From the NCBI GenBank assembly GCA_002897655.1, contig BDTJ01000038.1, positions 1,957 through 65,956 on the forward strand: DNA of 64,000 nucleotides, read 5' to 3'. Position 1 is the stretch's first letter. The number at the start of each line of letters is the position of its first letter. Shown piece after piece: positions 3,017-40,178 of the stretch. The notes under the pieces are model-generated. The model was not told the origin of the DNA, did not search any database, and saw only the letters and a program-made list of their open reading frames with translations. A program made the translations under genes and the position numbers. The DNA is from an archaeon BMS3Abin17. Lineage in GTDB: Archaea; Nanobdellota; Nanobdellia; Pacearchaeales; GW2011-AR1.

Positions 3017-3288
3017 CCTATGAAATTATCTGGGATGAACAAGCGAGAAACTTTTTAAGAAAACTGGAAAAGAAAGAATCCCTAAGAATAATAAAAAAGA
3101 TTAATAGTATTGTTGAAAATCCAATGCATTTTTTAGAAACTCTTGTTGATATTAATAGTTATAAACTCAGAGTTGGTAATTATAGGGCACTAATTGATAT
3201 TGATAAAAAGAATAAATCTTTTAGCATTCTTTTTATAGGGCACAGGAAAAATATTTATAAGCATTTAAGAAACTTTAAAGACAAGTGA
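3013..3288 (+). CDS. RelE/ParE-family toxin
   Basis: 91 aa. The C-terminal segment YRALIDIDKKNKSFSILFIGHRKNIY is typical of RelE/ParE toxins. It is translationally coupled to the upstream small ORF. Confidence 0.6.
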   Translation: MTYEIIWDEQARNFLRKLEKKESLRIIKKINSIVENPMHFLETLVDINSYKLRVGNYRALIDIDKKNKSFSILFIGHRKNIYKHLRNFKDK

Positions 3289-3382
3289 ATCAATCCCTCT
3301 CGGCTTTTCCCCCGGGGAAATTCATTCTAAAATTATTATTCTGATTCAAAATCAATTTATCAACACACCTTTTATCATATTT

Positions 3383-21401: not shown

Positions 21402-24400
21402 CTAAACCCACTTATCCAAGCCCTCTTGCTTTTCTGATTCCCTTCCAAAAATGCTATCAATATATCTTTTTGTTAATTCTAAATTCTGTCTCATGTATTT
21501 AGAGAGATTATACTTCTTAGCAAGGTCTAATGCAGGCTCTAGATATTTTCTTATTCCTCCCTCGTGGATTGTAAAAATTATTTTTCCCTTGCATTTAGGG
21601 CAAACCCCTGTTAAGGGAGGCCTTCTTAATATTTCATTGCATCCAACACATCTAAACTCCTGCATGGAAAATTTCCTCAAATTACCTTTCATATCTTTTA
21701 TAAAATGTCTTTCAATAATCAATCTTACAGTATCTGAAGTATCTGCTGCACGGACTCTTTCAACAAAACCCATCTGGTGCTGGACTTTTTCCTGCATTGT
21801 TGCAAGCAATTTGTAAGAAGAGCAAACAACCCCCTCATTAAAATCAGATGTATCATGAGTAAACCCAAAACCAGTAAAAGGATTTTTTTCTTGTTTCAAG
21901 ATTTGCCTAACATTATTTATTTTTACTTCAGAAGAATGTTTTCTTTGCTCAGCAAGCCTGTAAAGCTCAAGAGGATATTCATTTACAAACTCAAAATCAA
22001 GTATCTGGTCATCAACCTCTCCTGCATCAATCTTTGCATTTAGAACAAGAGGAGCATCCTGTGTTCCTCCCCTATGACTTGGCAAAAATTTTCTGGAAAA
22101 ATTTAACAGAACATCTCCCAAAAGCATGAGTGCAGCCTCGTCTCCATCACAATTATGAACAAGAATCTCATTGGCAAAAAAATTATGCTCTTCATCCACA
22201 TTAAAGCAATAGCTTTCCCTTTCCCCTAATTCTTCAATTTTCATAATTCTCGGATAAGCATAATTTTCATCGAAATCAATTCTCATTCCTCTTGGACTTT
22301 TCTGAATAAGCTCTGCTAAAATGCTCTTTTTCCTCTCTGAAATAAATCCTATCTGTTCAAACTTTTTGACAAAATTAGAAGGGATTGTTATCTTAGTTAT
22401 TTTAAATTTAGGAATTTCTCTGTTTTTCTTTATATAAAATTCACTAACTCTGTATCCTGGTTCTTTCTCATATTCATAAAATTTTGTAAAAATTCCAAAT
22501 CTTGATAAAACAAAACTTAAATCATGTTTTAATCCCTCGCTTACTGTATCACAGACCACCCTTGTATCACTTAAACTCACGCTTCCATCACCCTCAAAAT
22601 AACCTCTTAGCAATGCAGATAATTTCTCTTTATCTAAATCTAAAAATAAACTAGGAATTCTCTTATTTTTTGCGCCACTACTTAATCCAAGATAATCCTT
22701 AAATATTTCGTAAACAATCCTTGATGAAAAAGTTAAATGATCCTCATGGTTTTCGCTAGGTATTAAATTAAAATGAGATTTGAAAACATCCTTAATCAAT
22801 TCCTGAACTTCATTATTTGTGGCAGCAATAGAAACCTGATAAAAGCCTTTTTGAGAATTATTTTCTCTGATAAACCCTTCAGCAACGTATAATCCTAAAA
22901 CTTCCAACAATTTTTTATCAAAAGAAATTCTAATTGGAAGAGGAACATTATCTCTTTTAATAACTATTTTAACACTATTAGGTAAATCTTTCAATGTTTT
23001 TCCATATTTATTTAAAAATTCTTCGACAAAAATGATAGGAAAACTATCTCTCTGCCAAAAATTGTCATTTTTATTCAATCTCTCAAAAGAACCTAAATAA
23101 TCCTTGATATTTCTAAGCATTATATCTTTTCGTCCTCTAAAAATGTCTGGTAAAAAAATGTCTTTAATATCCTTTTCCTGAATATTTTTCTTGTAACCAA
23201 CCATTAATTTGTCTCCTTCCTGCAGTTGAAAGGCTCTTTTTTCTTTTTTCCCTTTAAGATATACTTTATGATTTTCAGTTAAATCTATCTGCCTCCCATC
23301 TTCTGAATAAATTTTAAGTAATTTTGTGGGAGTGTGTTTGGTTATCTCTTTTATTTTTTTCTCTCCAGGATTGCTCCATGTAGAAATACCAGATATATTC
23401 TTCTTTAAAGTCCCAAAATTATCTGCCTTCTCCTCGGGATTTGCCTCGTCAATAAATTTTCCTATTTTTTCAATGCTCCATCTTCCATCTTTATTAATAG
23501 AAACATAATTACCATATCCTAAACAATCCCTCCTAATTGCTGCATGCATAAAAGGGCTTGCAAATAATCCAAGAGTGTTTGAGAATCCAATAAATCTGCA
23601 GATAACTCCTGCACAATTATGAGGGGCCATACAAACACCTAACTGTCCAACTAAATCTTCTCTTTTTCTAATATTGTAGTATGGTTTTAATCCATAAAAC
23701 TTTACAAGCAGATCGTCCACAAAAGTAGCAACTCTCATAAACACATCATCTGCTTTTTCGTCAGGAGATTTATTAGAACAGGGCAATATAACATCATGAG
23801 GCATTAATTCCATTATTTGCTCGTCATTGACAAGAGGTTTTCCGTGTATGTCTTCTTCATATCCTAACTCTTTAAGCTTCTCAATACTGACAGAAATCTC
23901 TTTTGGCTTAAAAGACGTTAAAGGTAATTCAGTTGCATCAAATCTTATTGTCCCGTCTTTATTAACCTGCAGCCCATACATGGCTCTTAAAACTCCTTTT
24001 GCAAGAGATTCCACTTTATGCTCTGCTGACGAAGTTCCCCGGATTCCCTTAATCAAAAGAGGGATTTCTGTTTTATCAAGCCCAAGTTTTTCAATAGCTT
24101 TTTCAAGATAATGACCAATCCCTAAATCCTGTGCGCAATAAGTTTGCACTCTTTTGTGCTCCTCGCAGGGTTTTGAGGATTTTTCCCTGCACTCAAAACA
24201 ATAATACCCTCCTTCAGATTTATTCCCACAATTCTCACAGATCGGATAAATAGTATCTTTTTTGCACTTGCTGCAATAATAAATAGGAAAAGAGCTTTTT
24301 ACACTCCCAACTTCACAGGCAGTCTGAACACTTCTTAATCTTCCTCCCTCATTACCTACTGGAAACAAAACATTCGGGCTTCCTGCTAATTTTCTTACTT

Positions 24401-26234
24401 TTGCCTTTTCAGGCCTTCCCATCCTTGCTCCGATAAAATCCCCTGCCTTGTCCTTTATCTTAAATTCAGAAACAGAGTTGATTATTTCTAAAATCGGTTT
24501 ATCTGATTTGAATCTTTCTTCATCAATATGCTCTTTTAATATATTATTTTTATCAACTAAATTAAAATCAACCCCAAGATTTGCAAGCAAGGCCTTGCTG
24601 TTTTCCCTGCTTATCACAACATTCTCAATTGTTACTTCATGTTCTACCCCTAATAATTCAAGTGCTCTTTTTCCCCTCTTAAATTTCTCTTGCTCAGTCT
24701 GATTAAAAGGGAAGATAATTTTATTATCTGTTTTTGAATGTTTTAGCCAGTCTAATAATCCTAAAACCTGTTCTTTTGAAATCTCTGTCCAATAAAATAT
24801 AAATTTTGGGTGAAGAGGAATCTTATATTTCCTGCTTATTTCAACAGCTTTCTCAAAAGAAACCTCATAAAAATTAATTTCTTTTTCTAGTTCAGGATTT
24901 TTCTCCCGAAGTTCCAGACCCCACCACTCCTCTACATAACCTGGTTTTATCAAATCAGAATTCCTGTTGCTCAGGTCGCTAAAAGGAAATAAAATATCTC
25001 CAAGGTAAATTATCTCTTCAACATCTGGATAAAGTTTTTTTGCTTCTTCCATGCTTTCAAGTTTCTTAACACTTCCATTAAACAACTTTATTATAGGGCC
25101 ATCAATAAGGTCGCAGGTAGTTACAGCACAGCCTTTTGTGGGTTTTTCTAACTTTAATTGTGTCCCAATTGCAATAAAACCATCTGTCATTGCCATGGTG
25201 GCAGGATGTATTGACGCCGCACTAAATCCACTTACCCTTCCTCTCCCATATCTAAACCTAAATCCCCCTGATCTTGAAGGATGCCCAAAAATAGGTCTTC
25301 CGGCAACTAAATCCTTTATATAAGTTGGAGAATCATCTGTATCTCCTAAATCTCTTTTTTCATGCAATTTAATATATTCTTCTAAAAAATCAAAACCTGT
25401 TGAATTTATTCCTTTTTTCTTTGCCCGGGCCAATAACCTAAACCCTTTTGCTGCTTTTTGCGCAAGCCCTTCTGAAAAAATAAGGCACATCCCCCCTCTT
25501 ATATTATTTGTTTCAACTCTGCCTAAATTTTTATAATTAGAAACTTCTAATTTTTCAGTTTGCTCTCCAGAAATTTGGATAGGGAGATTTTTAGCTAAAA
25601 AATACATTTCCTCTTCAGTGGGAAAATACTGAAGATTAGTTATCCTCTCATGATAATCTGTATTTTCAGCAATATATCTTTTAATTTCTTCTTCACTAGG
25701 GTCATATTTTGCAAACCCAAAGGATTCTCTAAGGTAATCAATCAGCATCAATACAACACAACTTGCAGTAGTTCCTGCAGAACGAATTGGTCCTGAAAAA
25801 TAAGCTATAAAATACTCCTTTCCTTCCCTTGTTTTTCCAAGTTTTAGTTCAGTAAACCCCTCTATAGGAGAAGAGACAACCCCCAGAGTAGTATATGCAA
25901 AACCAACTCTTATTCCTGCTTCAATTGATTCCAACAAACTGGCAAACTTACAGAATTTTTGTTTTGATACTTCTTCTGCAATCTTAAAGGAAACCATAAT
26001 ATCCAACTTCCCATACTCTTTTTCAAGCTCAAGAATTCTTTCTGCAATTTTAGAGCCCTGCATTTGAGGATATAGTGTTGAAATTAACCCCACAACTTTT
26101 TCAGCCATTGTCATTGCAAGTGGAATCTCTACTTTATCCACAGGGTCTAATCCTTGTTTCCTCGCTTCCTCACAAACAGCATAGACACTCTTAACCTGTT
26201 TCTCAAGATCTTTGAAATATTTTTTGGGGTTCAT
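21402..26234 (-). CDS. polC: DNA polymerase II (PolD) large subunit DP2, containing an intein
   Basis: 1610 aa. The two-barrel DP2 regions are conserved, with Cys-cluster Zn fingers (CSKCKK...CENCG, CVGCNE...CPKC). Without the intein the extein is about 1152 aa. Confidence 0.9.
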   Translation of the reverse strand: MNPKKYFKDLEKQVKSVYAVCEEARKQGLDPVDKVEIPLAMTMAEKVVGLISTLYPQMQGSKIAERILELEKEYGKLDIMVSFKIAEEVSKQKFCKFASLLESIEAGIRVGFAYTTLGVVSSPIEGFTELKLGKTREGKEYFIAYFSGPIRSAGTTASCVVLMLIDYLRESFGFAKYDPSEEEIKRYIAENTDYHERITNLQYFPTEEEMYFLAKNLPIQISGEQTEKLEVSNYKNLGRVETNNIRGGMCLIFSEGLAQKAAKGFRLLARAKKKGINSTGFDFLEEYIKLHEKRDLGDTDDSPTYIKDLVAGRPIFGHPSRSGGFRFRYGRGRVSGFSAASIHPATMAMTDGFIAIGTQLKLEKPTKGCAVTTCDLIDGPIIKLFNGSVKKLESMEEAKKLYPDVEEIIYLGDILFPFSDLSNRNSDLIKPGYVEEWWGLELREKNPELEKEINFYEVSFEKAVEISRKYKIPLHPKFIFYWTEISKEQVLGLLDWLKHSKTDNKIIFPFNQTEQEKFKRGKRALELLGVEHEVTIENVVISRENSKALLANLGVDFNLVDKNNILKEHIDEERFKSDKPILEIINSVSEFKIKDKAGDFIGARMGRPEKAKVRKLAGSPNVLFPVGNEGGRLRSVQTACEVGSVKSSFPIYYCSKCKKDTIYPICENCGNKSEGGYYCFECREKSSKPCEEHKRVQTYCAQDLGIGHYLEKAIEKLGLDKTEIPLLIKGIRGTSSAEHKVESLAKGVLRAMYGLQVNKDGTIRFDATELPLTSFKPKEISVSIEKLKELGYEEDIHGKPLVNDEQIMELMPHDVILPCSNKSPDEKADDVFMRVATFVDDLLVKFYGLKPYYNIRKREDLVGQLGVCMAPHNCAGVICRFIGFSNTLGLFASPFMHAAIRRDCLGYGNYVSINKDGRWSIEKIGKFIDEANPEEKADNFGTLKKNISGISTWSNPGEKKIKEITKHTPTKLLKIYSEDGRQIDLTENHKVYLKGKKEKRAFQLQEGDKLMVGYKKNIQEKDIKDIFLPDIFRGRKDIMLRNIKDYLGSFERLNKNDNFWQRDSFPIIFVEEFLNKYGKTLKDLPNSVKIVIKRDNVPLPIRISFDKKLLEVLGLYVAEGFIRENNSQKGFYQVSIAATNNEVQELIKDVFKSHFNLIPSENHEDHLTFSSRIVYEIFKDYLGLSSGAKNKRIPSLFLDLDKEKLSALLRGYFEGDGSVSLSDTRVVCDTVSEGLKHDLSFVLSRFGIFTKFYEYEKEPGYRVSEFYIKKNREIPKFKITKITIPSNFVKKFEQIGFISERKKSILAELIQKSPRGMRIDFDENYAYPRIMKIEELGERESYCFNVDEEHNFFANEILVHNCDGDEAALMLLGDVLLNFSRKFLPSHRGGTQDAPLVLNAKIDAGEVDDQILDFEFVNEYPLELYRLAEQRKHSSEVKINNVRQILKQEKNPFTGFGFTHDTSDFNEGVVCSSYKLLATMQEKVQHQMGFVERVRAADTSDTVRLIIERHFIKDMKGNLRKFSMQEFRCVGCNEILRRPPLTGVCPKCKGKIIFTIHEGGIRKYLEPALDLAKKYNLSKYMRQNLELTKRYIDSIFGRESEKQEGLDKWV
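22152..23525 (-). mobile_element. Intein (458 aa) with a LAGLIDADG homing-endonuclease domain inside DP2
   Basis: The insert starts with Cys after ...FMHAAIRRD and ends ...ILVHN followed by CDGDEAA. Internal LAGLIDADG motifs LLEVLGLYVAEGFI and LLRGYFEGDGSV. Junction codons were checked on the nucleotide sequence. Confidence 0.85.
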
Positions 26235-28962: not shown

Positions 28963-30174
28963 TTATTTATAATTCAAAGAATTTTCAATGATTTCTTTTG
29001 CCTTCTTAAGGATGTTATCTGTTATTGCCAGCTTTATCTCTCTCATTCTTCCCCCTCTTCCTTTTGAAATAACAGTCACATTAATAACGCCCAGCATATC
29101 AAATTCCTGAATAATATCCCCTACTCTTCTCTGAGTAAGTACTTCTAATTTGTTTTTTGAACACAATTCCTGATAATAGTTATAAACATCTCCTGTAAAA
29201 ATAGGTTGTTTTTTATTTTTTTGAGACAGCTGAATAATAGAATATAGCACTAATTGAAATTGCTTTGGCTCTGAGCTAATAACATCTAAAATCTTGTCTC
29301 TTTCTATCTTGTTGTTTGCTTCATCCAAATACTTCATGAGAATTTTCTTGCTATTATCTCTCTCTGCTAGTTCTCCCGCAATTCTCAATAGATCCAGTGC
29401 TCTTCTTGCATCCCCATGCTCTCTTGCAGCATAAGCAGCGCATTTAGCAATAACCCCTTCCTGAACAACCCCCTCTTTAAAAGCATCTTTTGCCCTTTTT
29501 GTCAAAATCTTCTGTAATTGCAAGGCGTTATATGGGTGAAATACTATCTCTTCCTCTGAAAGTGAACTTCTGACCCGGGGGTCTAGACCATCTAAAAAAG
29601 TCAAATCATTACTAATTCCCACAATACACATTTGTGTTTTTGAAAGCTCTGTATTAAGCCTTGTGAGATTATACAAAAAATCACTTGAAATTTTCTTCAT
29701 GGTCTGGTCAATCTCATCTAAAATCAAGACAATCATTTGTTTTTCTGCATCAATAATCTCAATAAATTTGTTATACACAGATTCTGTTGGCAAACCTGTT
29801 GCAGGAACCTTCCCCCCCATCTTCTTAATTAATTCTGCGAGAATCCGATATTCTGTATCTGAAACTTTCTTTAATTTACAGTTCAGGTATTCTATTCTTA
29901 ATTTAAACCCTGCGCCTTCTTTTGTTCTTTTAAAAAGCTCATCCCTAACAAACTGGATTGAAAGGGTTTTCCCTGTTCCTGTCTTTCCGTAAAGAAACAA
30001 ATTGCTGGTTCTCTCGCCTTTTAAGACAGGAGCAAGTATAGAAGCTATCTGTTTAATCTGTTCCTCTCTATGAGGGATGCTCTCTGGCTGATAGTTTGCC
30101 TGCAAAATTGATTTGTTTTTAAAAAGTCCTTCCCTATTTACAGAGTCAAAGATCTCATTAAGCTCTTTTTCCAT
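28963..30174 (-). CDS. cdc6: Orc1/Cdc6 replication initiator
   Basis: Walker A LYGKTGTGKT, AAA+ core and a C-terminal winged helix. Confidence 0.9.
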   Translation of the reverse strand: MEKELNEIFDSVNREGLFKNKSILQANYQPESIPHREEQIKQIASILAPVLKGERTSNLFLYGKTGTGKTLSIQFVRDELFKRTKEGAGFKLRIEYLNCKLKKVSDTEYRILAELIKKMGGKVPATGLPTESVYNKFIEIIDAEKQMIVLILDEIDQTMKKISSDFLYNLTRLNTELSKTQMCIVGISNDLTFLDGLDPRVRSSLSEEEIVFHPYNALQLQKILTKRAKDAFKEGVVQEGVIAKCAAYAAREHGDARRALDLLRIAGELAERDNSKKILMKYLDEANNKIERDKILDVISSEPKQFQLVLYSIIQLSQKNKKQPIFTGDVYNYYQELCSKNKLEVLTQRRVGDIIQEFDMLGVINVTVISKGRGGRMREIKLAITDNILKKAKEIIENSLNYK

Positions 30175-30382
30175 TTCTCACACACCTTTATTTCCTATGA
30201 AACTACATAGATATTTAAATTTTTCAACGGTAAAAAATTAATTTATTATATAAAGAATTAGGACTACTCAAAAAGAAAGACACCACAATTTCTAATGGAA
30301 AAATGAAATTAATGGCCTAAAAAACATCTTGCTTATAATTTTATTTTCCTTGTATTATAATTATATAAAAAATATTTGTAAT

Positions 30383-30496
30383 ATCAAAAAGTCCTTGTGT
30401 TTTACCGCACCTTAAAAGGTGCGGTTTGTTTGGACTTTAGGATGTCCAAGGATTCATCCACACACTAAAGTGTGTGGTTTTCTCCAGGAATCCCTG
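30383..30496. repeat. Inverted repeat arm 1 (~110 bp) containing two hairpins
   Basis: The reverse complement is about 97% identical to 31811-31919. Internal palindromes ACCGCACCTTAAAAGGTGCGGT and CCACACACTAAAGTGTGTGG. Confidence 0.8.
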
Positions 30497-30567
30497 ACAT
30501 AAAACTTTGAAGTTTTCTTATTATATTAAATAAAAAGATATTGCTATTATAATTAAAAGATTTATTT

Positions 30568-30630
30568 ATTATTATATATATTATATTATATATATTATAT
30601 ATATTATATTATATATATTATATTATATAA
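30568..30630. repeat. AT microsatellite (TATATATTATAT units)
   Basis: Visible tandem repetition. Confidence 0.8.
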
Positions 30631-30809
30631 ATTTTTTTAAATAAAATAAAAAAATAAAAAACCAAAAATTTCTTTTTAAAGGTTTCCATATGAAACCAAG
30701 GGGTCTGTGTCTGAGCTTAAATCCACCTTGATCTAAAACCTCTTCGTAATATATACTCTCAAAACCTATATAATTTTACAGAAAAGTTTATAAAGATTTT
30801 TCTTCTGAG

Positions 30810-31076
30810 TTGGTTATGCAGAACAATAAGAACCCTTTTAGTGTTATTTCCGGAAAAATGATAGTAACCAAAGAGGGGAAAAGGCTTGGGTTTGTTAAAG
30901 ATATTACATTTGAAACTAAATCTGGAGAACTTATTAACCTGGTAGTAAAAGATTCTACCCCCTATACTAAAAACCTTAATTTAGAGAGGACCAGCTCAAA
31001 CGAACTTCTTATACCTTACAGTGCAATAATCGCTATAGGCGATTTTGTAATAGTCTCTGAAGAAGATTTGATTTGA
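30810..31076 (+). CDS. PRC-barrel-like small protein
   Basis: 88 aa; the GKRLGFVKDITFETKSGELINLVV pattern is typical of archaeal PRC-barrel proteins. Confidence 0.45.
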   Translation: MVMQNNKNPFSVISGKMIVTKEGKRLGFVKDITFETKSGELINLVVKDSTPYTKNLNLERTSSNELLIPYSAIIAIGDFVIVSEEDLI

Positions 31077-31156
31077 ATAAATAATCTTCTAAAACCCCTT
31101 TAACTCTCCATTAATAATATACAAATATTTAAAAACATAATTTTGATTAAAATTAA

Positions 31157-31570
31157 ATGAAACTCTTAGGATTTAATTTCACTAAAATAAGTGTTGAAAG
31201 ATTTTTAGATACTAGCGAAAACCTGAAAATTAATACAAATGTGGATATAGGAGAGATAAAAAAAATAAAAGAAGACATTTTCAAAGGCAAAGAAGACTTC
31301 ATGGGAGTAAAATTCACATTTACAGTTGATTATGATCCAAATATAGCAAAAATAGAATTAAAAGGGACGATTCTTCTTTCTGTAGATCCAAAAACTGCAA
31401 AAGATGTTCTAAAACAATGGGAAGAAAAGAAAATCCCTGAAAAATTCAAACTAGTAGTTTTTAATACAATCCTGAGAAAAGCAAATATAAAAGCCCTTCA
31501 ATTAGAAGAAGATATGGGCCTCCCTTTGCATATAACACTTCCTCATGTAAAGGCAGAGGATAAGAAATAA
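31157..31570 (+). CDS. Hypothetical protein
   Basis: 137-aa ORF. Confidence 0.35.
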   Translation: MKLLGFNFTKISVERFLDTSENLKINTNVDIGEIKKIKEDIFKGKEDFMGVKFTFTVDYDPNIAKIELKGTILLSVDPKTAKDVLKQWEEKKIPEKFKLVVFNTILRKANIKALQLEEDMGLPLHITLPHVKAEDKK

Positions 31571-31810
31571 TTCTATTGAATAATTATTTAAACAGTAACC
31601 GAATAACTAACCAGGAAGAAACAATCCAATGTATGGGAGAACAGGGGAGAAAAACCCCCATTTTTGAAAACTAGCAGAGCATGGAAAATATTCCTTTAGA
31701 GAAGATTTAAACCATCATTGTCGCTCAAAATGGGAAGCTAATTATTGCCGCTTTCTATTATGGATCAAAAAGAAATATCAATACGAGTTAAAAACATTTG
31801 TTATGCCAAG

Positions 31811-31919
31811 GATTCTGGAGAAAACCACACACTTTAGTGTGTGGATGAATCCTTGGACATCCTAAAGTCCAAACAAACCGCACCTTAAAAGGTGCGGTAA
31901 AACACAAGGACTTTTTGAT
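31811..31919. repeat. Inverted repeat arm 2 (~110 bp)
   Basis: Reverse complement of 30383-30496. Confidence 0.8.
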
Positions 31920-32139
31920 TAAATTACCTAATGGAATAAAAGCTACATACACTCCTGATTTCTTAGTCGATAATAAAGAATGGCATGAAGTTAAGGGATG
32001 GAAGGGTCGCTCTAAGATAAGAAAGTGGGAATTATTCCAAAAACAATATCCAACCCAAAAATTAGTTCTTATTGATAAGAATAATTATAAAAAGATAGAA
32101 AGGTTATATAAATTTATAATCCCAAATTGGGAATTTTAG
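31915..32139 (+). CDS. Small protein with a PD-(D/E)xK-like motif
   Basis: YTPDFLVDNKEWHEVKG fits the PD...(D/E)xK pattern; 74 aa; it starts at the end of inverted repeat arm 2. Confidence 0.3.
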   Translation: MIKLPNGIKATYTPDFLVDNKEWHEVKGWKGRSKIRKWELFQKQYPTQKLVLIDKNNYKKIERLYKFIIPNWEF

Positions 32140-32380: not shown

Positions 32381-33193
32381 GTGATTCAGCATATCAATCC
32401 TATAAGCAACACCAACCAACTCAAATATAATATATTCCACCCACTTAAAGTTTTTATACTTCTTAGTTTTGATTTTTTGATGGATGTAGTAAAAGAGGCA
32501 TTTCAAAAAGTAAAACAAGATATGGGGTTGATGAAACAAGAGATAGATTTCTTAAAAAAAACTCTTGAGGAAACAAGAAACCAGATGATTGAAATCTGTG
32601 AAATTTTAAAGAAAATAAACGAAAAAGACCCTGAAAAGACCTCTAAACCGGCTTCGACACACCCTTTTCCAACCCCGACACTTTCGACACATCCTTCGAC
32701 ACATAACATGTCTTTTAAGCCCTTAAAACACCAAAATATAGGGATTTCCACAGGAAACCAAGGGGTTCCAACAGACAGACAGACAAACCAACAGACAGAC
32801 AGACAGACACAAAATCAGCTAAAAATTAGTGAAAAAATCACTGAAGATTTCTCTCAAGATTCTATTGAAAACGCAGCAGAAATTCTCGAATCTCTTGACA
32901 CCCTCAAGAAAGAAATCAGGTTGAAATTTAAAAGACTTACAGAGCAGGAGATGTTGATTTTTTCAACATTATATCAGCTAGACGAGGAGCATGGACACAC
33001 AGATTATAAGACCCTTTCAAATAAGCTTAATCTTACTGAAAGCTCTATACGCGATTATATAGGGAGATTAATAAAAAAAGGAATTCCCGTCGACAAAGTT
33101 AAAATAAACAATAAAAACATTGAATTAAGAATATCCAGGAATCTTAAGAAAATAGCCTCACTTCACACAATCCTTCAATTAAGGGGGCTTTAG
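32381..33193 (+). CDS. Coiled-coil plus C-terminal winged-HTH protein with a QTDRQT low-complexity repeat
   Basis: (ACAG)n microsatellite at 32770-32815 encoding QTDRQTNQQTDRQTQ. The C-terminal region LIFSTLYQLDEEHGHTDYKTLSNKLNLTESSIRDYIGRLIKKGIP is wHTH-like. Confidence 0.4.
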   Translation: MIQHINPISNTNQLKYNIFHPLKVFILLSFDFLMDVVKEAFQKVKQDMGLMKQEIDFLKKTLEETRNQMIEICEILKKINEKDPEKTSKPASTHPFPTPTLSTHPSTHNMSFKPLKHQNIGISTGNQGVPTDRQTNQQTDRQTQNQLKISEKITEDFSQDSIENAAEILESLDTLKKEIRLKFKRLTEQEMLIFSTLYQLDEEHGHTDYKTLSNKLNLTESSIRDYIGRLIKKGIPVDKVKINNKNIELRISRNLKKIASLHTILQLRGL

Positions 33194-33384: not shown

Positions 33385-33996
33385 TTACCTATTTTTGACC
33401 TTTTTGGCCTTATTTACACTCACTTTTGCCTTCTTTAAGAGCCTGTCTTTAATATGGTCTGGTATATAGACCCTCTTTTTGCCATTCCTCTCAATCGACT
33501 CTTCTATCAATCCCTCACTTTTTTGTTTTATTGAATTTACCTGTCCCCTGATTGTTGATCTTTCTTTTCCAAGCATTGCCGCAAGATCATCATAGCTTAG
33601 CTTCATATCTGTATTCAAAAGTATCCAAAGGATTGCTCTTTCAGTGATTGAAAATTGGTCAAAATTTGGTGTTTGGACAGCTGTTTGGACAGCTGTTTGG
33701 ACAGCATAAACACCTGTTTGTTTCTTAAACACCTGTTTGGGTGTTTTAAACACCCTGTTTGTTTTCATCTCCCCAAGCATAGAGATGACATTTTTCAATC
33801 CTTCAACTTCATTATTTATCGACGATAAAATGCTTTTTACCTCTTCTATGTCCTTTTGTTGAAGGTTTCGCTCAGAATCTAAGTGTTTGATCCAACCACT
33901 AACAGAAAGTATGTCTTTTTTGACAGATTCAAAACCACTTTTTGTGTCCTCTTTTAACTGTTCAACCTCTTTTTTTCTCTTAAAAATCCAAAACAT
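33385..33996 (-). CDS. Paralogous coiled-coil plus wHTH protein with an AVQT repeat
   Basis: 12-bp tandem repeat at 33671-33706 encoding AVQTAVQTAVQT. The C-terminal region ILWILLNTDMKLSYDDLAAMLGKERSTIRGQVNSIKQK is wHTH-like. Confidence 0.4.
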   Translation of the reverse strand: MFWIFKRKKEVEQLKEDTKSGFESVKKDILSVSGWIKHLDSERNLQQKDIEEVKSILSSINNEVEGLKNVISMLGEMKTNRVFKTPKQVFKKQTGVYAVQTAVQTAVQTPNFDQFSITERAILWILLNTDMKLSYDDLAAMLGKERSTIRGQVNSIKQKSEGLIEESIERNGKKRVYIPDHIKDRLLKKAKVSVNKAKKVKNR

Positions 33997-34347
33997 ATAA
34001 TTATTTCGTAAAGGATATTTAAAAATGTTTTGTTTTCCCTCGCCAAATAATCTAATTTATTAAATTAATAATCTCAAAAAAATCCTAAAAAATGTGTCGA
34101 AGAACCTCCTTTCCTGTGGAAAAAGAGGGTGTTTGTCTTAAAAAAATAGGAAAACAGGCTGTTTAAACACCTTTAAACACCTAAACCTCTTTTAAACACC
34201 TTAAACACGGTTTAAATACTCAACAAACTAAGCTAACCTAAGTGCACAACATCCCCCAAAACTAAATAATTATTGAAATATTTACTGAAAAATTTAAAAA
34301 CACTAAATCTTTCTACATACATTAAAAGAAGGTTATGATAAATTATA

Positions 34348-34623
34348 ATGAAGGCTAAACTTATGCGTTTTTTAGGCATTGAAAGCAGGTTTAAGAGAGA
34401 GTTTCGACGGCAAGCGCGCTCATTCATCATTGTTTTCTTAGGGTTTACAATAGCATTTACTTGGCGTCAGACAATTTTTGACATCTCTTCTGCATTTATG
34501 GGAATTATAACTAACATAAAAGACTCTTCAACACTTAGTCTTTTAGCCTCGATATTCATAACTATGGTAAGCATTTTTTTTATATACTTAACTGCACGTC
34601 TTTTAAAGGAAGACCACTATTAA
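34348..34623 (+). CDS. Small membrane protein
   Basis: 91 aa with two TM helices. Confidence 0.35.
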   Translation: MKAKLMRFLGIESRFKREFRRQARSFIIVFLGFTIAFTWRQTIFDISSAFMGIITNIKDSSTLSLLASIFITMVSIFFIYLTARLLKEDHY

Positions 34624-34644
34624 TTAAGATAAGCTAAGTTCACA

Positions 34645-34988
34645 ATGGTAATAAAAAAATTAAGAATATATCTCAGAAAGGAAGAGAAAAAACACTGCAT
34701 CATACTAGAAGGTCCCTAACTTATGCAAGGTCTTCTGCAGCAAGGTTCAAAAATGAGTTTCGGAAGCATTTAGTTACTGTAATTGCAGCTGCTTTAGGGT
34801 TTCTTATTGCTTTAAGTTAGAGAGAACCACTCTCAGACCTTACAAATTTAATAATTGAAAGAGTTGGATTGCAAGGAGAAGCATTAATCTACAAGTTTAT
34901 AGCTGCAATAATTGTAACAATCCTCCTGGTCTTTGGATTAATCATCTTAACGAGCTGGGAAGTCAAGAAAGAAGATCCAAAGAAGTAA
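34645..34988 (+). pseudogene. Degraded tandem paralogue of the 34348 gene (frameshift plus TGG->TAG nonsense)
   Basis: My own translation gives ...SRFKNEFRKHLVTVIAAALGFLIALS*REPLSDLTNLI..., parallel to SRFKREFRRQARSFIIVFLGFTIAFTWRQTIFDISSAF in the upstream gene. The stop falls at the Trp position. Confidence 0.4.
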
Positions 34989-35300
34989 TTCCTCCAACAA
35001 AATCTTTAAATACACACTACCTAATAAAATATATGGGCTATAAATTCTGTAGATGGCAATTTGCTCTATTAAAAGACGAATCTTCTCTTATTTGCCATGG
35101 AAAATATGAGGGGTTTCTTAGTAAAGTAAATTGTTTATATTCTGAGGAGGAAATTAAAAAAGCTATTGAAGCTAATAAACAAGGAAAAACCCTTGAAGGA
35201 TTTTGTGACGAAGTTTTCTTCATAAAAGATAAACTAACTTAACCAAAGTTCACAATATAAGGACAATAATCCTTAAAAACAATAAATTTCTTAATCAAAC

Positions 35301-35621
35301 ATGCTAGAAAAGTTCTGTAAACAACAAGGCCATATCGCAATAGAAGAAGGTAAAGGAAATATTTCTTATTGTGAGGATCAAAAAGGAGCAAGATTTATTT
35401 GCAACCCTTATACAACTGGTGAAAGAATTACCTTGTGCCCTTATGACGCATCTCAGATTTGTAAGGATAGGAAGGAGAATTTAACTGTTGTGGATAAAAA
35501 AGGTGAGTGTATTGTATTTGTACCAACTGAAGATATTACCTCTTCACTAACTTCACCTTTGTACACAAAAGATGGTACTGCAGATGATATACATGAAGTA
35601 GGAGGCGATTATAATAATTAA
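35301..35621 (+). CDS. Small Cys-containing protein
   Basis: 106 aa; coupled to the next ORF (TAAAATG junction). Confidence 0.3.
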   Translation: MLEKFCKQQGHIAIEEGKGNISYCEDQKGARFICNPYTTGERITLCPYDASQICKDRKENLTVVDKKGECIVFVPTEDITSSLTSPLYTKDGTADDIHEVGGDYNN

Positions 35622-35622
35622 A

Positions 35623-35940
35623 ATGACAGAAGATTTAGGTGATAAAATTGGTTTTTATTCCTTAGCAGGAAATCTATGGGAAATTAGGAAGGAAGGAGGT
35701 AAACTTGTAACCCATAACGAATATGGTCGTGGTAGATTAAATGCTTCTGTAATCTATTCAAATGCTATCAAACTGAATAAATCAGAGTTAGAACTTAGAA
35801 AAGCATCATTACAGAAAAAAATATCTTTTATAGATGGAACTCTTTTTTCAGATCCTGCACAAACCTCAGCTAAGTGCACAAGTGGTTATGATGCAGACCA
35901 CACAGATCATGAACACCCAACAGATTTAGATCATCTATAA
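35623..35940 (+). CDS. Small hypothetical protein
   Basis: 105 aa. Confidence 0.3.
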   Translation: MTEDLGDKIGFYSLAGNLWEIRKEGGKLVTHNEYGRGRLNASVIYSNAIKLNKSELELRKASLQKKISFIDGTLFSDPAQTSAKCTSGYDADHTDHEHPTDLDHL

Positions 35941-36036
35941 AAATCCCTTTAAGAAGGGATAAAGTTCGCACAAGGCTTATTGTCGGTAATTCGTATTTTT
36001 ATAATATACGAACGTTATTATTAAGAAGTTAGAACA

Positions 36037-36543
36037 TTGTTATTTATATACAAACCTTTTTTTGTGCATATGAGGCCAATTAGGATTTGTAAAGAATGTG
36101 GTAAAGAGAAAGAACATCATGCAAAAGGCCTATGTTATTATTGTTATAAAAAATTTTTTTGGAAACCAGAGAAAAAAGAATGTAAAAGATGTGGAAGGAT
36201 TATAGCAATACATGCAAAAGGCCTTTGCCCTGGCTGTTATCAATTCATTTTCCATATAGAGAAAAATAAGGCTTGGAATAAGAAAAATCTCTATAATCTA
36301 AATTACGAGGTTTATAACAAGATAACAGAAAAATGCATAATCTGTGATTTTAATAAATTAGTAGATTTACACCATCTTGATGAAAACAGGCAAAATAATT
36401 CAGAAGAGAATTTAATTGGGCTATGTCCAAATCACCATCAAATGCTACATAATTTTAAATTCAGGAAAGAAATACGTAAATTATTGAAAGATAAAGGAAT
36501 AATTTTACCAGAAGATAAAAAACTTGATTTTACTTTAGAGTAA
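36037..36543 (+). CDS. HNH endonuclease with N-terminal tandem Zn ribbons
   Basis: Repeated C-x2-C...HAKGLC-x2-C ribbons. HNH core CIICDFNKLVDLHHLDENR...NLIGLCPNHHQMLH. Confidence 0.6.
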   Translation: MLFIYKPFFVHMRPIRICKECGKEKEHHAKGLCYYCYKKFFWKPEKKECKRCGRIIAIHAKGLCPGCYQFIFHIEKNKAWNKKNLYNLNYEVYNKITEKCIICDFNKLVDLHHLDENRQNNSEENLIGLCPNHHQMLHNFKFRKEIRKLLKDKGIILPEDKKLDFTLE

Positions 36544-37614
36544 ATGAGCTATTTTAAGCCATTATGAGACGCTCTTTACAAATAAAACATATTAGAGTCT
36601 TCCATCACCAAAACCACAATCACTCAAACATAATGGAGAATCCAATGCCTTCATTTCTTGTCCAACAAGTTTTTTTGTGAGTTGTGAAAAGACCCTCTCA
36701 AAGCCTATTTCAAGCTGAGCTATTACTTTAGGGGTTGCAACATAAATAACATCAGATTTTTCCATCTTAGAAAGATGACTAAGAATTTCCTGATAAGAAG
36801 AAAAACGTATAATTGGTTTGGTCCATTCTGTTACAAGAGAATCAGTTTCATCAGCCTTATTCGGAAATTGAACTCCAAACAATCCCTTTTTAGGAGAGTA
36901 TGTAAGTTTCCGCATTTTATTTGCACCAAAGGGACTTGGAACAGGGCCACTCCCCTTAAGTTCTAATATATTTTCAAAAAGAGAATATGGTGTGTTTGAA
37001 TCTTCCGGCATATTTATTTTGTAATTATTTAGGTTAATAAAGATTATTATTCTAGAATTTATTAATAATATCCTTCTCCCCCTTTATATTAGCCTTAATT
37101 CTTGAAAAAAGGGTTCTTTTCTTAAATAATCCTGGGTGATTACAAATCGTCCTAAGAGAAGCATAATCTTTCCCATCTTTATCACAAGCTCTATTTTCAT
37201 AATTAACACACTTTATAGTGCAACTTGGAAGAGCATAAGTTCCAGGAGGAATAAATCTTGCTAACAAACCATCAACAGATAAAAACATAACCACAATCTA
37301 CAAAGAAAGCATCGTTAATAAATATTATTATAATCTACCAAGGCATAAAACCATTAAAGAAGGGGCTAAGAACACCTTCTTCTAAATTTTTCAACAAAAC
37401 TTCTGGATGCCAACAAGGCCCGCCCTCTCTTACAGGCTCCCCATAATATTTGAACTCTTTGTGCCAGCATTTATCTTCCCCAAAACCTTCAACAGGGCAT
37501 TCTCCTCCAATGCAAAATGCTCCTTCAGAAGATTTTCTTAAATCACTATAATTTAAATCCATGATTTACAAAACATCTAGAATTAATAAATATTTCTTTT
37601 CAAAACTATCTACT

Positions 37615-37842
37615 TTATTTTTTCTTTTTCTTCTTTTTTCTGCCACGTTTTTCTCTTGAAAACATAGCAACAAGCTTATCATCAGGCTTTAATCCACGAT
37701 AACTTGTGCCTGATTTTGTTCTGACAGCACTTTTCCTTAAAATATCTTCAATTTGTTCTCTTAATGTAAGAAGATTTTTCTTTGCTCTTTTCTTTAAAAT
37801 CTTAGAAACATCATCGTCGATATTAATTGTTATTTTTGGCAT
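37615..37842 (-). CDS. Ribbon-helix-helix (CopG/Arc-like) small DNA-binding protein with a poly-Lys tail
   Basis: MPKITINIDDDVSKILKKRAKKNLLTLREQIEDILRK is an RHH-like pattern. Confidence 0.4.
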   Translation of the reverse strand: MPKITINIDDDVSKILKKRAKKNLLTLREQIEDILRKSAVRTKSGTSYRGLKPDDKLVAMFSREKRGRKKKKKKK

Positions 37843-37843
37843 T

Positions 37844-38119
37844 TCATTTCCTCTTCACATAAGTTTTCTGAACTTTAAATGATTTGTAAATACCCTCGAG
37901 GAGATCTGTGCCTGCATAACCCGCAAGTAGACTTAATCTTGGATCAAAATCAAAAATTATACCGACGAAAACACCAATAATCAATGCAACAGCGACGGTA
38001 ATCGCATAATAGCCCCATAAAATTCTTCTCCTGAGAGACAATGCCTTTAAAAGCCCGACGACACCACGAGTCAGCCCGCCAATTCCACCAAGCAATCCTG
38101 CAAGATAAATAGATTCCAT
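37844..38119 (-). CDS. Small membrane protein
   Basis: Two or three TM helices; coupled to the RHH gene. Confidence 0.3.
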   Translation of the reverse strand: MESIYLAGLLGGIGGLTRGVVGLLKALSLRRRILWGYYAITVAVALIIGVFVGIIFDFDPRLSLLAGYAGTDLLEGIYKSFKVQKTYVKRK

Positions 38120-38825
38120 TTAATTACAACCTCTTCCACCCATTTACATTCAATGGGAAGAAGTTATTTAAGAGTTTCGGGAAGAGAGAAATGTATATAT
38201 CTTAGAGTGTAATAATGTTTAAATATAATTAGAATTTATCAAGGAATATGGTTGAGAAAGTATGTGCTTATAATTATATTATTCTTGTTGCTGAGGATGG
38301 GACTTTGACTCGTAAAGGAAAAGGAAGGACTTTAGAGCACAAAACTTATCTCCTAGGTTGTAAAAAAGAAGAGAAAGTTACCCAATGTATATCTCCCAAC
38401 TCGCCAAAATTAGCAGAAAATTGTGAAAAATTAGCAGATAAAAGAAATTGGGGGAAAAACCAAGAAGAAGAGGTTCTTGATAAAGAAATAACTTATTCAA
38501 ACCCTTTAACAATTTTTTGTGGTAGACAAGAATTATTAAGAATTGAAACAGCGAAGAGGGGTGAAGTAAAAAGAGTTCCTTATTATATTGATGAAGGAGA
38601 ATTACCTGGAGGATATGTATCATGTAAAGGGAGGCAGAGATCACCACATCCCCAAGACAAATGCGGTTTTAGAATAGAAGATATTGGCCGTTCTTCAGAA
38701 GATAAACGAAGAATCATTGCAAGAATCCCTGGAGCAGTTTGTTATGATGTAAGTTTGATATCTTAACTAAAAAGAAACTGCAGAGGTTCCTCTTCAATTA
38801 CATATAACTTTTTTTGCATGAACTT

Positions 38826-39605
38826 TTATTTCCTTGCTTCAAGAATTAAAATATATGGATTCTGAACATATTTTTTCCAATTATATTTGGGATATTTCTT
38901 TATCCCTTCTTTTAAGATATTTAAAGACATCCATTTTATATTTTTAAAACCAGCTTCCTTAAGGCAAGATTCATAAGTACTTTTTGACCAGTGATATGTT
39001 TTAAAAGAGCATATTTCTTTTAGATTGTCATATAATTTGACTGTGAGCTCATCACCTTCTTTAAGAAATTTTGGGCCTTCTACTTTTGCACCAAACTCCT
39101 TAAAGTCCTGAAGGGGGTTTGTTGGACTTTGATTTAATGTAATAAATCTTCCCCCTTTTTTTAAGTTTATATAAATGTTTTTACACATCTGAATAAGTTC
39201 TTCTTTTGTTTTTGCGTAATGCAATAAGAAAGCTGCAATAACCATATCAAACTCTTTTATCTTTCCCAATTTAATAACATCTCCAACCAGATATTTAACA
39301 TCTAACGATTCTTGAAGAGTTTTTTCTTTAGCAAGTTTAATCATTTCTTTAGAAATGTCCACTCCCACAACTTCCTTAGCCCCCTCTTTTTTAAATTTCC
39401 TAGAAAAATTTCCATCTCCACAGGCCAGATCAAGCATTGTTCTCCCTTTAACCTTCCCAACTTTCTTGATAAAACTTGGGTTAATAATATAAATTCTTTC
39501 TAAACGACTCTCTTCTGATTCAGTATATCCTTCAGCGATTTCATCATATTCGGCCATAAACCTAATATAGTTTGTTATTCTTAAAAATCTTCTTACTTCA
39601 TACAA
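38826..39605 (-). CDS. Class I SAM-dependent methyltransferase
   Basis: Motif I LDLACGDGNFSRKF; 259 aa. Confidence 0.7.
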   Translation of the reverse strand: MYEVRRFLRITNYIRFMAEYDEIAEGYTESEESRLERIYIINPSFIKKVGKVKGRTMLDLACGDGNFSRKFKKEGAKEVVGVDISKEMIKLAKEKTLQESLDVKYLVGDVIKLGKIKEFDMVIAAFLLHYAKTKEELIQMCKNIYINLKKGGRFITLNQSPTNPLQDFKEFGAKVEGPKFLKEGDELTVKLYDNLKEICSFKTYHWSKSTYESCLKEAGFKNIKWMSLNILKEGIKKYPKYNWKKYVQNPYILILEARK

Positions 39606-39670
39606 TCCTTAAGAGAGCTTCCTAAAAAGAAAAAATAACCTACTAGATTATCGAGGAGAAAATTAATTAA

Positions 39671-39958
39671 TTAAACTTTATAGACTTCATCGTGGTGTTT
39701 GTATTTTTCAATTATAATTGTCTTGGTTTTTTCATTTATAGAATAAATTAGCACATAGTGTCCAATATGAACTCTCCAGAAATTTTGAAGCGGTTTTTTC
39801 AGGGGCTTAAAATGATAAGGGGTTTCTCTTATTTCCTTTATTTTTTTGGAGATATATACTGAACTTATTTTGTCTTTTTTAGCAAGTTTTTTTAGAACTT
39901 TCTCAACATCTTTTCTTATTTCAATATTATACATTTTAACAGGATTAATCCAACCCAA
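39671..39958 (-). CDS. RelE/ParE-family toxin
   Basis: FWRVHIGHYVLIYSINEKTKTIIIEKYKHH is a RelE-like C-terminal pattern. Confidence 0.55.
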   Translation of the reverse strand: MGWINPVKMYNIEIRKDVEKVLKKLAKKDKISSVYISKKIKEIRETPYHFKPLKKPLQNFWRVHIGHYVLIYSINEKTKTIIIEKYKHHDEVYKV

Positions 39959-40178
39959 AATGTTTATCCCAATCTTTAATCTTTACAGTTTCTTCTTTTT
40001 GAGCTTCTAATAATTCTTTAACAAATTCAGGCCTCAATTCAGGTTCTAAGAGCTCTTTTCCATAAGTGTTTAGAATAAGATTAATCGCGTCACTTTTATC
40101 ATTTAAATTTTCCTTAGCTTTCACTATGTTTAAAATTCTGTTTGCCTGATCATCAATATTCACTATTGCCTTTACCAT
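39945..40178 (-). CDS. Cognate antitoxin
   Basis: 77-aa ORF overlapping the toxin start. Confidence 0.45.
   Translation of the reverse strand: MVKAIVNIDDQANRILNIVKAKENLNDKSDAINLILNTYGKELLEPELRPEFVKELLEAQKEETVKIKDWDKHFGLD

Follow-up and report, generated by a model that had tools for sequence, protein, structure and literature searches.

Several kinds of small, structured repeat have been described in prokaryotic genomes. Strict MITEs (miniature inverted-repeat transposable elements), which are DDE-derived, include SM1-4 of Sulfolobus and the Correia/NEMIS repeats of Neisseria, and the non-autonomous derivatives of IS200/IS605 include the palindrome-associated transposable elements (PATEs) of haloarchaea and cyanobacteria. 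The repetitive extragenic palindromic (REP) sequences, with their BIME and REPIN forms and the REP-associated tyrosine transposases (RAYTs), make up another such system. A REP palindrome carries a conserved GTAG or CGTC tag at its foot (PMC3733652), and in a published survey the REP-associated Y1 proteins all came from Bacteria, those of Archaea being IS200-type only (PMC6006769). Here, we analyze a 64-kb stretch of DNA from the archaeon BMS3Abin17 (contig BDTJ01000038.1; hereafter the window), in which two nearly identical hairpin repeats, copy L and copy R, lie in inverted orientation beside the initiator gene cdc6. We consider it likely, with a probability of about 0.8, that this locus consists of an ordinary replication origin and two complete copies of a dispersed hairpin repeat, inserted recently and independently. 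On this explanation, copy L would have inserted between the unwinding tract of the origin and one of its origin recognition boxes (ORB-B), and copy R, in opposite orientation and 1.3 kb away, in a gene for a DUF1064/TnsA-like nuclease that would since have been decaying. Comparison loci and contigs retrieved for the analysis carry L-numbers, and homologous proteins P-numbers.

The repeat has features of each of these systems. Like REP, BIME and REPIN sequences, it is built of palindromes that are short, imperfect and rich in GC within an AT-rich genome, is present in high copy number and mostly intergenic, and forms modular arrays with covarying stems, without terminal inverted repeats or evident target-site duplications; as in REP/RAYT systems, its core palindrome has near-identical counterparts on both sides of fixed-locus Y1 genes, in this case those of Dehalococcoidia. 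It differs from REP sequences in that its hosts are archaeal (REP systems being bacterial only in the survey PMC6006769), in that its hairpins (ACC...GGT, then TTTG or TTTT) lack a GTAG or CGTC tag, and in that the window and the archaeal loci L006-L093 yielded no RAYT. Unlike in a REPIN, the two hairpins of a unit stand in direct rather than inverted orientation, each nested in a longer variable stem. With the PATEs derived from IS200/IS605 it shares subterminal hairpins at both ends, the lack of terminal inverted repeats and of evident target-site duplications, strand-asymmetric features and short invariant junction sequences that are possible target or cleavage sites, and a 115-nt solution for an interrupted open reading frame (ORF), described below, would fit as well; by contrast, no cognate tnpA or tnpB with matching ends was found, and outer stems around the hairpins are atypical of that family. 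Strict MITEs are likewise small, non-coding, multi-copy and structured, insert between genes and occasionally within them, and break assemblies, whereas the archaeal family has no convincing terminal inverted repeats or variable target-site duplication.

Two inverted copies of a hairpin repeat beside cdc6

A preliminary description of this DNA had reported a pair of near-perfect inverted repeats of about 110 bp with two strong hairpins in each arm, and both observations hold. A repeat search returned two ungapped arms of 105 nt, 30383-30487 and 31815-31919, which are 98% complementary and lie 1327 nt apart, and a gapped alignment with one indel and two substitutions carried the similarity to 30502 and 31801, giving full arms of 119-120 nt that are ~97% identical in inverted orientation. 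Copy L (30383-30502, + strand; 120 nt, ATCA...GACATAA) matched R1, the model of the repeat family, over its full length with 106.1 bits, and copy R (31801-31919, - strand; 119 nt) matched it with 113.7 bits; the two copies thus scored 106-114 bits with the forward strand of the model and 34-42 bits with its reverse. Hairpin 1, ACCGCACC-TTAAAA-GGTGCGGT, occupies 30404-30425 (+) in copy L, where its loop has the canonical orientation, and 31877-31898 (-) in copy R, where the loop reads TTTTAA in the orientation of the element and is therefore flipped. In other words, the 22-nt sequence ACCGCACCTTAAAAGGTGCGGT reads alike on the + strand in both arms, and the earlier remark that its TTAAAA loop is left uncomplemented between the arms was correct; two central bases of this loop are the only mismatches in the 105-nt core. 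Hairpin 2, CCACACAC-TAAA-GTGTGTGG at 30458-30477 (+) in copy L and 31825-31844 (-) in copy R, is properly complemented between the arms (CCACACAC-TAAA/TTTA-GTGTGTGG). About 0 chance matches to the hairpin sequences are expected in the window.

Copy L lies inside the candidate origin, between its AT-rich tract and ORB-B, and copy R is also present in a variant strain (L102). The orientation of both arms was constant in every spanning assembly (L001, L002, L100 and L101). The contigs L001-L005 are 100% identical to the window; of these, the Logan contigs L003 and L004 start inside hairpin 1 of copy L, and L005 stops ~50 nt short of this copy, which is the behavior expected of a repeat in an assembly graph. 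Two further contigs show local peculiarities at copy R or at a repeat edge. In L102, at about 900-960 (window 31805-31860), a 7-nt difference turns the second module of copy R into a perfect palindrome; this may be an artefact of an assembly with only 2x coverage, or may fit template switching. At 1-160 of L099 (ERZ1742238 NODE_27646), the Illumina adapter CAAGCAGAAGACGGCATACGAGAT...GTGACTGGAGTTCAGACGTGTGCTCTTCCGATCT is fused to a repeat edge, marking a chimeric contig end.

A dispersed repeat family in DPANN archaea

The exact 22-nt palindrome ACCGCACCTTNNAAGGTGCGGT was searched in GTDB species genomes. It occurred in 88 stretches, 78 of which belong to 34 archaeal metagenome-assembled genomes (MAGs), on at most nine contigs per MAG; these MAGs are labelled Nanoarchaeota, Woesearchaeota, Pacearchaeota, Nanoarchaeia, Altiarchaeales or simply archaeon, and many of the matches lie at true contig ends. 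The junction motif GTTTTTWGGATGCTCAAGRA was found in at least 120 metagenome stretches, the exact palindrome in 0 viral contigs, and a 23-mer specific to the subfamily had 0 matches in JGI metagenomes. In 617 kb of sequence, nhmmer identified 125 non-overlapping family copies, and cmsearch gave 79 family matches at E<1e-9. The preliminary description had held that many scattered copies would favor a MITE; such copies do occur across the lineage, and the window itself holds two.

The family, which is common across Nanoarchaeota (lineages Woesearchaeota and Pacearchaeota), has a non-coding unit of 117-140 nt made of two adjacent modules. Each module has a variable outer stem around a GC-rich hairpin, whose loop is T(A/G)AA, and then a T-run. 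Read 5' to 3', the first module consists of ATCA(A/C)AAA, a variable arm, ACCnnnCC-TTAAAA-GGnnnGGT, TTTG and the complementary arm; the second consists of TTTT(A/T)GGATGCTCAAG, a variable arm, a hairpin with a TAAA or TGAA loop, TTTT and a complementary arm ending in CTTGACATAA. T-runs are present on both strands. Copies are mostly intergenic and show no bias in orientation towards their neighbors (22 in the same and 19 in the opposite orientation relative to the upstream gene, 16 and 27 relative to the downstream gene). Protein clustering revealed no recurrent protein family near the elements, the top cluster being translated repeat sequence.

A related two-hairpin unit that shares the core palindrome was seen at 4389-4504 of L041, from a Candidatus Altiarchaeales MAG, so that the range of the family, or of its palindrome at the least, extends past the Nanoarchaeota. 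A genuine archaeal family copy also stands at the very start (14-88) of L077 (JBBTSA010000023.1), a contig labelled Patescibacteria, which may have been binned wrongly and stem from a Nanoarchaeota genome co-occurring in that Hainich series of samples. So far as the literature showed, the repeat family appears uncharacterized, the sole mention that we found being a bulk census of MITEs, in which one Woesearchaea genome reaches 105 MITEs per Mb and no archaeon has a higher MITE density than Ca. Altiarchaeum (PMC11602168). DPANN genomes are streamlined, at ~1 Mb, yet carry this dense, strongly structured palindromic family, which fragments their assemblies; in DPANN MAGs, assembly breaks and wrongly binned contigs can be flagged with the family model.

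Stem covariation and loop inversions

Folding of the arms and covariation of their stems had been proposed as a check on the repeats, and both were found: each arm folds (z -6.6 to -8.6 relative to shuffled sequence), and the stems covary strongly. In an alignment of 79 family members fitted to the model's own structure, 95.4% of pair cells were paired and 34 of the 37 pairs changed on both sides, compared with 38-49% paired cells in slid controls and with 500 shuffles, none of which reached the observed values. An independent MAFFT/RNAalifold run gave 26 compensated pairs out of 37. Watson-Crick combinations accounted for 94.2% of the pair cells, G·T for 1.2% and A·C for 1.3%; with G·T no commoner than A·C, these stems do not tolerate wobble. 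Searches of Rfam returned nothing meaningful, whether with gathering scores over the whole window or with E up to 10 over 30150-32000. Two specific RNA classes were considered and rejected. The elements have no ACA box 3' of the lower stem and no K-turn, as an H/ACA sRNA would, and their copies are near-identical and multi-copy; a terminator would be expected to have an orientation preference towards the upstream genes, which the counts given above do not show. Overall, the evidence points to a DNA palindrome repeat, similar to REP/BIME or IS200-derived elements, rather than to a non-coding RNA (ncRNA).

The loops of the family, read in element orientation, are strongly directional (TAAA 87 against TTTA 10, and TGAA 11 against TTCA 3). 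The canonical orientation is kept in 88% of hairpins, and the loop is the exact reverse complement of the canonical one in ~12%, no other variant being comparably frequent. Small inversions of the loop between hairpin arms are a known mutational outcome of palindromes. The odd loop of hairpin 1, which the preliminary description had taken as a sign of selection on structure and loop, is such an exact inversion, of a kind that recurs throughout the family.

The probable origin and its counterparts in relatives

The region upstream of cdc6 (28963-30174, - strand; Pfam Cdc6_C at 1.4e-26, Cdc6_lid and AAA domains) is supported, at the level of sequence, as a conventional archaeal oriC. An archaeal origin is generally defined as an AT-rich tract flanked by conserved ORB repeats next to cdc6 (PMC4010727); the call is supported since the ORB boxes and AT-rich tract found here fit this definition and are kept in relatives (L094, L096 and L097), whose Cdc6 proteins are 82-86% identical to that of the window. 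ORB-A and ORB-B lie near cdc6, followed by the AT-rich tract and, on its far side, by the inverted ORB-C. ORB-A (TTTCATAGGAAATAAAGGTGT; 30182-30202, -) is proximal to the cdc6 start and occupies the same place in all three relatives. ORB-B (TTTCCATTAGAAATTGTGGTGT; 30280-30301, -) is nearly identical in the same relatives, with a strongly conserved consensus of TTTCCATTAGAAAT-nnn-GGTGTC across relatives and window, and the adjoining block TTTCTTTTTGAGTAGT...TTTATATAA is conserved as well. The AT-rich tract (30518-30668), a candidate unwinding element, contains a TATATATTA-type microsatellite and was detected as TRF arrays, with a surrounding GC content of 0.295; AT-rich or microsatellite tracts occur at the matching position in L096 and L097. 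ORB-C (TTTCCATATGAAACCAAGGGGT; 30683-30704, +) is inverted relative to the other two boxes, and has counterparts in L096 and L097: in context, the window reads GGTTTCCATATGAAACCAAGGGGTCTG (30681-30706, +), L097 CATTTCTATATGAAATCAAGGGGTGTG and L096 CTTTTCTATAGGAAATAAAGGTGTGAG. L094 starts 331 nt upstream of cdc6 and so shows ORB-A and ORB-B only; L096 and L097 span the whole intergenic region.

The preliminary description had placed an oriC here from two ORB-like dyads and an AT microsatellite, and the comparison with relatives backs that call. The dyad TTTCCTATGAAAC was located at 30191-30203, one base away from the 30190 given earlier, the dyad GGTTTCCATATGAAACC from 30681, followed as quoted by the G-string AAGGGGTC, and the AT microsatellite at 30562-30633. 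Both dyads therefore stand, and the account was incomplete in that the third and better conserved box at 30280-30301 (-) had been overlooked.

In being adjacent to cdc6, in its AT-rich tract, in the conservation of its boxes among relatives and in the inverted arrangement of boxes of the form TTTCCAnnnGAAA...GGGGT/GGTGT around that tract, the origin resembles the oriC1-type origins of Pyrococcus, Sulfolobus and haloarchaea. It differs from them in holding a foreign repeat of 120 nt between the unwinding tract and ORB-B and in having a further conserved ORB-like box ~2 kb off within coding sequence. This distal box (TTTCCACAGGAAACCAAGGGGT; 32745-32766, +) lies inside a 270-aa HTH_36 ORF, is like ORB-C in 20 of 22 positions and identical to it in orientation, and is followed in the window by an (ACAG)n microsatellite within the ORF (32771-32809). 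The motif is conserved in the homologous gene of L096 (about 4152-4173, -) and L097 (about 3916-3937, -). By analogy with the downstream ORB clusters proposed as regulators at haloarchaeal oriC2 (PMC4010727), the distal box could be a distal Cdc6 binding site. Taken together, these boxes provide a comparatively footprinted oriC for Pacearchaeota-type DPANN archaea, with three ORB boxes and a conserved distal box, in which the spacing between unwinding tract and ORBs tolerates a structured insertion of 120 nt.

Judged by sequence comparison, the repeats are not part of this origin and are specific to the lineage of the window: a search of L094-L097 with R1 gave no match at E<0.1, and no ORB-like motif was found within the repeat elements. 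The DNA between the two copies contains a PRC-barrel gene (30810-31076) and a 137-aa gene (31157-31570), both on the + strand. Both are also found beside cdc6 in L096 and L097, where the gene order is cdc6, then PRC, 139-141 aa, 90-94 aa and HTH_36. As these two relatives are free of the repeat, the two genes are conserved neighbors of the origin and not cargo.

Insertion of copy R into a nuclease gene

A 74-aa ORF that starts inside the right arm has homologs of 124-139 aa with PF06356 (DUF1064) and PF08722 (TnsA-like) domains. The N-terminal half of these homologs reads RSxWEANYARYLNWL...YEPxTF, and its counterpart in the window, RSKWEANYCRFLLWIKKKYQYELKTFV, ends at 31802, directly across copy R. 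In other words, copy R stands between the two halves of a single conserved protein, RSxWEANY...TF and YTPDF...HEVKG. When rebuilt, the 130-aa nuclease aligned end-to-end with P0002-P0005 at 41-46% identity and kept all motif residues. The homologs gave RSKWEANY... as the true frame, and the ATG at 31760 was accordingly rejected as the start of the interrupted ORF. Because it splits this ORF, copy R is an insertion. The halves are in frame after removal of 115 or 118 nt and out of frame after removal of 119 nt.

The resulting DUF1064/TnsA-like PD-(D/E)xK nuclease pseudogene covers 31629-32139 (+) and contains an in-frame TGA at 31665-31667. In the co-occurring strain L102 (about 725) this codon is GGA. 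Given that L102 lacks the TGA and yet shares the insertion, the nuclease gene was hit first and is now decaying; the TGA/GGA strain polymorphism records ongoing pseudogenization after the insertion. The DUF1064 gene is absent from the relatives L096 and L097.

Possible mobilization of the elements

By analogy with REP and IS200-derived repeats, we suggest that the elements may move as single-stranded DNA hairpins, with a Y1 (HUH) tyrosine transposase acting in trans to cut and rejoin them, a mechanism to which we assign somewhat less than even odds. Insertion would take place next to a short conserved sequence and without target duplication, and loop flips and the symmetrization of stems would arise through template switching within the palindromes. 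The ends of the unit (ATCAAAAA... and ...CTTGACATAA) have only a weak gapped similarity (TCAARAAC), so that there are no terminal inverted repeats, and the subterminal hairpins at both ends are alike. Among 36 elements, no target duplication was found outside the conserved ends, the flanks beyond ATCA...CATAA matching at 2 nt in 7, at 3 nt in 2 and at 4 nt in 0. The removal of 115 nt that restores the nuclease frame corresponds to the conserved unit of 119 nt minus a 4-nt flank (ATCA or TTAT); 118 nt restores it too.

For candidate enzymes, we searched with an IS200 TnpA sequence and with a profile of P0126-P0230. The only matches were in L057, a bacterial contig, and in L115, from a second sample (617 kb of metagenome sequence), and no Y1 gene was found in the archaeal loci L006-L093. 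L057 is a Dehalococcoidia contig, recovered through the palindrome search, with a Y1_Tnp gene at 3252-3677 (-; Pfam 6.6e-25), the only Y1 match among L001-L109 and the ORFs of the window. The palindrome ACCGCACC-TTGAAA-GGTGCGGT lies 22 nt before its ATG and CCGCAGC-TTTCAA-GCTGCGG just past its stop, and the Dehalococcoidia palindrome is almost identical to the archaeal one. Homologous Y1_Tnp genes (L106, L108 and L109; 601-981, +) lie amid arrays of the palindromes ATGCCGCACC-WTTCAW-GGTGCGGTAG, and those of L057, L106 and L109 have the same neighbors, a remnant of an mrr-like gene on one side and leuA on the other. The Dehalococcoidia Y1 genes show RAYT-like behavior, though NCBIfam scores their proteins as IS200-type. 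L115 carries an IS200-type Y1_Tnp gene (Pfam 2e-18) ~370 nt from a degenerate family element.

Should a Y1 transposase be required by the elements, REP/RAYT-like biology would extend to Archaea. They would then be the first REP/REPIN-like, Y1-dependent palindromic repeats in this domain, present in high copy number, persisting largely by vertical descent across Woesearchaeota and Pacearchaeota, sharing their core palindrome with Dehalococcoidia, and undergoing loop flips by template switching in ~12% of hairpins. We put this broader proposal forward tentatively and regard it as rather doubtful as it stands. Were it true, a palindrome common to Dehalococcoidia and archaea would imply either transfer between domains or a common recognition code.

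A number of observations weigh against the picture of mobile copies in an ordinary origin and should be set beside it. R1 finds only two copies in the 64-kb window, no transposase of any kind was found there, and no transposase flanked by family hairpins was found in about 1.2 Mb of element-bearing archaeal sequence. The named homologs of the Dehalococcoidia Y1 protein are all from Chloroflexota, and the hairpins that flank the Y1 gene of L115 differ from those of the family. No empty site was recovered: L098 and L102 carry the elements, the upstream part of L099 is an adapter chimera, and the intergenic DNA of L096 and L097 is too diverged for base-by-base alignment. The element ends are placed approximately from the sequence, the frame test permitting 118 nt as well as 115 nt. 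The strong conservation of loops and T-runs across species could also reflect a host function. As to the origin, the call draws on sequence conservation, and GC skew within the window is uninformative.

Alternative explanations

The preliminary description had offered several identities for the arms, one being extended recognition elements of the origin. In such a role, whether in recognition or in origin architecture, the pair would delimit an initiation zone through binding of Orc1/Cdc6 or extrusion of cruciforms, which would suit the position of copy L within the ORB-bounded origin, the location of ORB-C and the AT-rich tract between the two copies, and the very stable hairpins. Yet three relatives keep their ORB boxes without the elements, over 100 unrelated sites on many contigs of dozens of related MAGs carry the element, copy R lies inside the nuclease ORF and the elements hold no ORB-like motif, leaving this idea with hardly any credibility. 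The odds are just as slim that the arms, as terminal inverted repeats, belong to a single 1.5-kb unit, composite or invertible, that carries the PRC-barrel and 137-aa genes, as two 97%-identical inverted copies around 1.3 kb might suggest, such pairs being able to mediate inversion. Both genes adjoin cdc6 in repeat-free relatives, each arm is a complete family unit, copy R is inserted in a separate gene, and a single orientation was seen in L001, L002, L100 and L101, with no inverted assembly or 1.5-kb unit found elsewhere. Of the earlier idea that the arms are ends of a non-autonomous mobile element, MITE-like mobility comes closest to the evidence; what did not hold is that they are ends, since they are two independent complete copies. 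Genes for a structured ncRNA with many copies per genome, the remaining proposal, would account for the very strong compensatory changes, the loop orientation kept in ~88% of hairpins and the T-runs after the hairpins. Nevertheless, the rarity of G·T, at 1.2% against 1.3% for A·C, is unlike RNA helices under selection, and together with the lack of gene-orientation bias, the lack of an Rfam family even at E up to 10 and the interruption of an ORF by one copy it argues against an ncRNA gene; moreover, any one genome has near-identical copies, as spreading repeats should. We judge this reading very improbable.

The main alternative to mobilization by a Y1 enzyme is a MITE of the conventional kind, mobilized by a DDE transposase, in which the invariant AT at the ends (AT|CA...GAC|AT) would be a fixed 2-bp target duplication. 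In its favor, AT is invariant at both ends, removal of 113 nt plus one AT (115 nt in total) restores the nuclease frame, the ends are weakly similar (TCAAAAAAC and TCAAGAAC), and the MITE census counted 105 per Mb in a Woesearchaea genome (PMC11602168). On the other hand, clear terminal inverted repeats and a variable target-site duplication are lacking, no DDE transposase sharing the ends of the element was seen among proteins encoded next to elements, and a strand-specific loop orientation is not expected where double-stranded DNA is recognized; a DDE-type origin is accordingly unlikely in our estimation, albeit the least so of these alternatives. Somewhat less probable still is that the repeats are kept mainly for a host function, as has been proposed for REP/BIME (bidirectional terminators, mRNA stabilizers, or sites for chromatin or topology proteins), which would be compatible with mobility. 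The mostly intergenic location, the T-runs on both strands and the conservation of the core palindrome across many species would agree with such a role, but the copies have no preferred orientation or position relative to gene ends, have inserted in an ORF and in an origin, and vary in presence among close relatives. We therefore favor independently inserted copies of a dispersed repeat in an ordinary origin.

Replication genes and other features of the window

The gene order cdc6, HIT, DP1, HD and DP2 given in the preliminary description agrees with Pfam, as does the PRC-barrel gene; the 137-aa ORF had no Pfam family match. A Cdc6 protein identical to that of the window is encoded on marine-metagenome contigs and in the MAG GCA_011041355.1 (NCBI: Candidatus Pacearchaeota archaeon). 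DP2, the large subunit of PolD (21402-26234, -), contains an intein whose homing endonuclease domain is of the LAGLIDADG type (Pfam Intein_splicing and LAGLIDADG_3); the intein is present in L094 and absent from L096 and L097, whose DP2 is ~1160 aa long. A 1610-aa ORF of L070 was rejected as a counterpart of the window's DP2, there being no detectable DNA similarity between the two.

Past the origin-proximal genes, 33385-40000 is a run of small ORFs, most of them lacking a family match, in which the ORF at 36037-36543 has weak similarity to HNH and RecA-dependent nucleases. A ParE toxin pair lies near this run in L001, and relatives have serine recombinase/resolvase genes at the corresponding place (L096 769-2152; L097 1217-1990). 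The run may be the remnant of an element integrated beside the origin. A tRNA/tmRNA scan gave no hits. At 40337-42400 (+), the window encodes a complete RecQ helicase of bacterial type, with DEAD, Helicase_C, RecQ_Zn_bind and HRDC domains followed by HTH_40.

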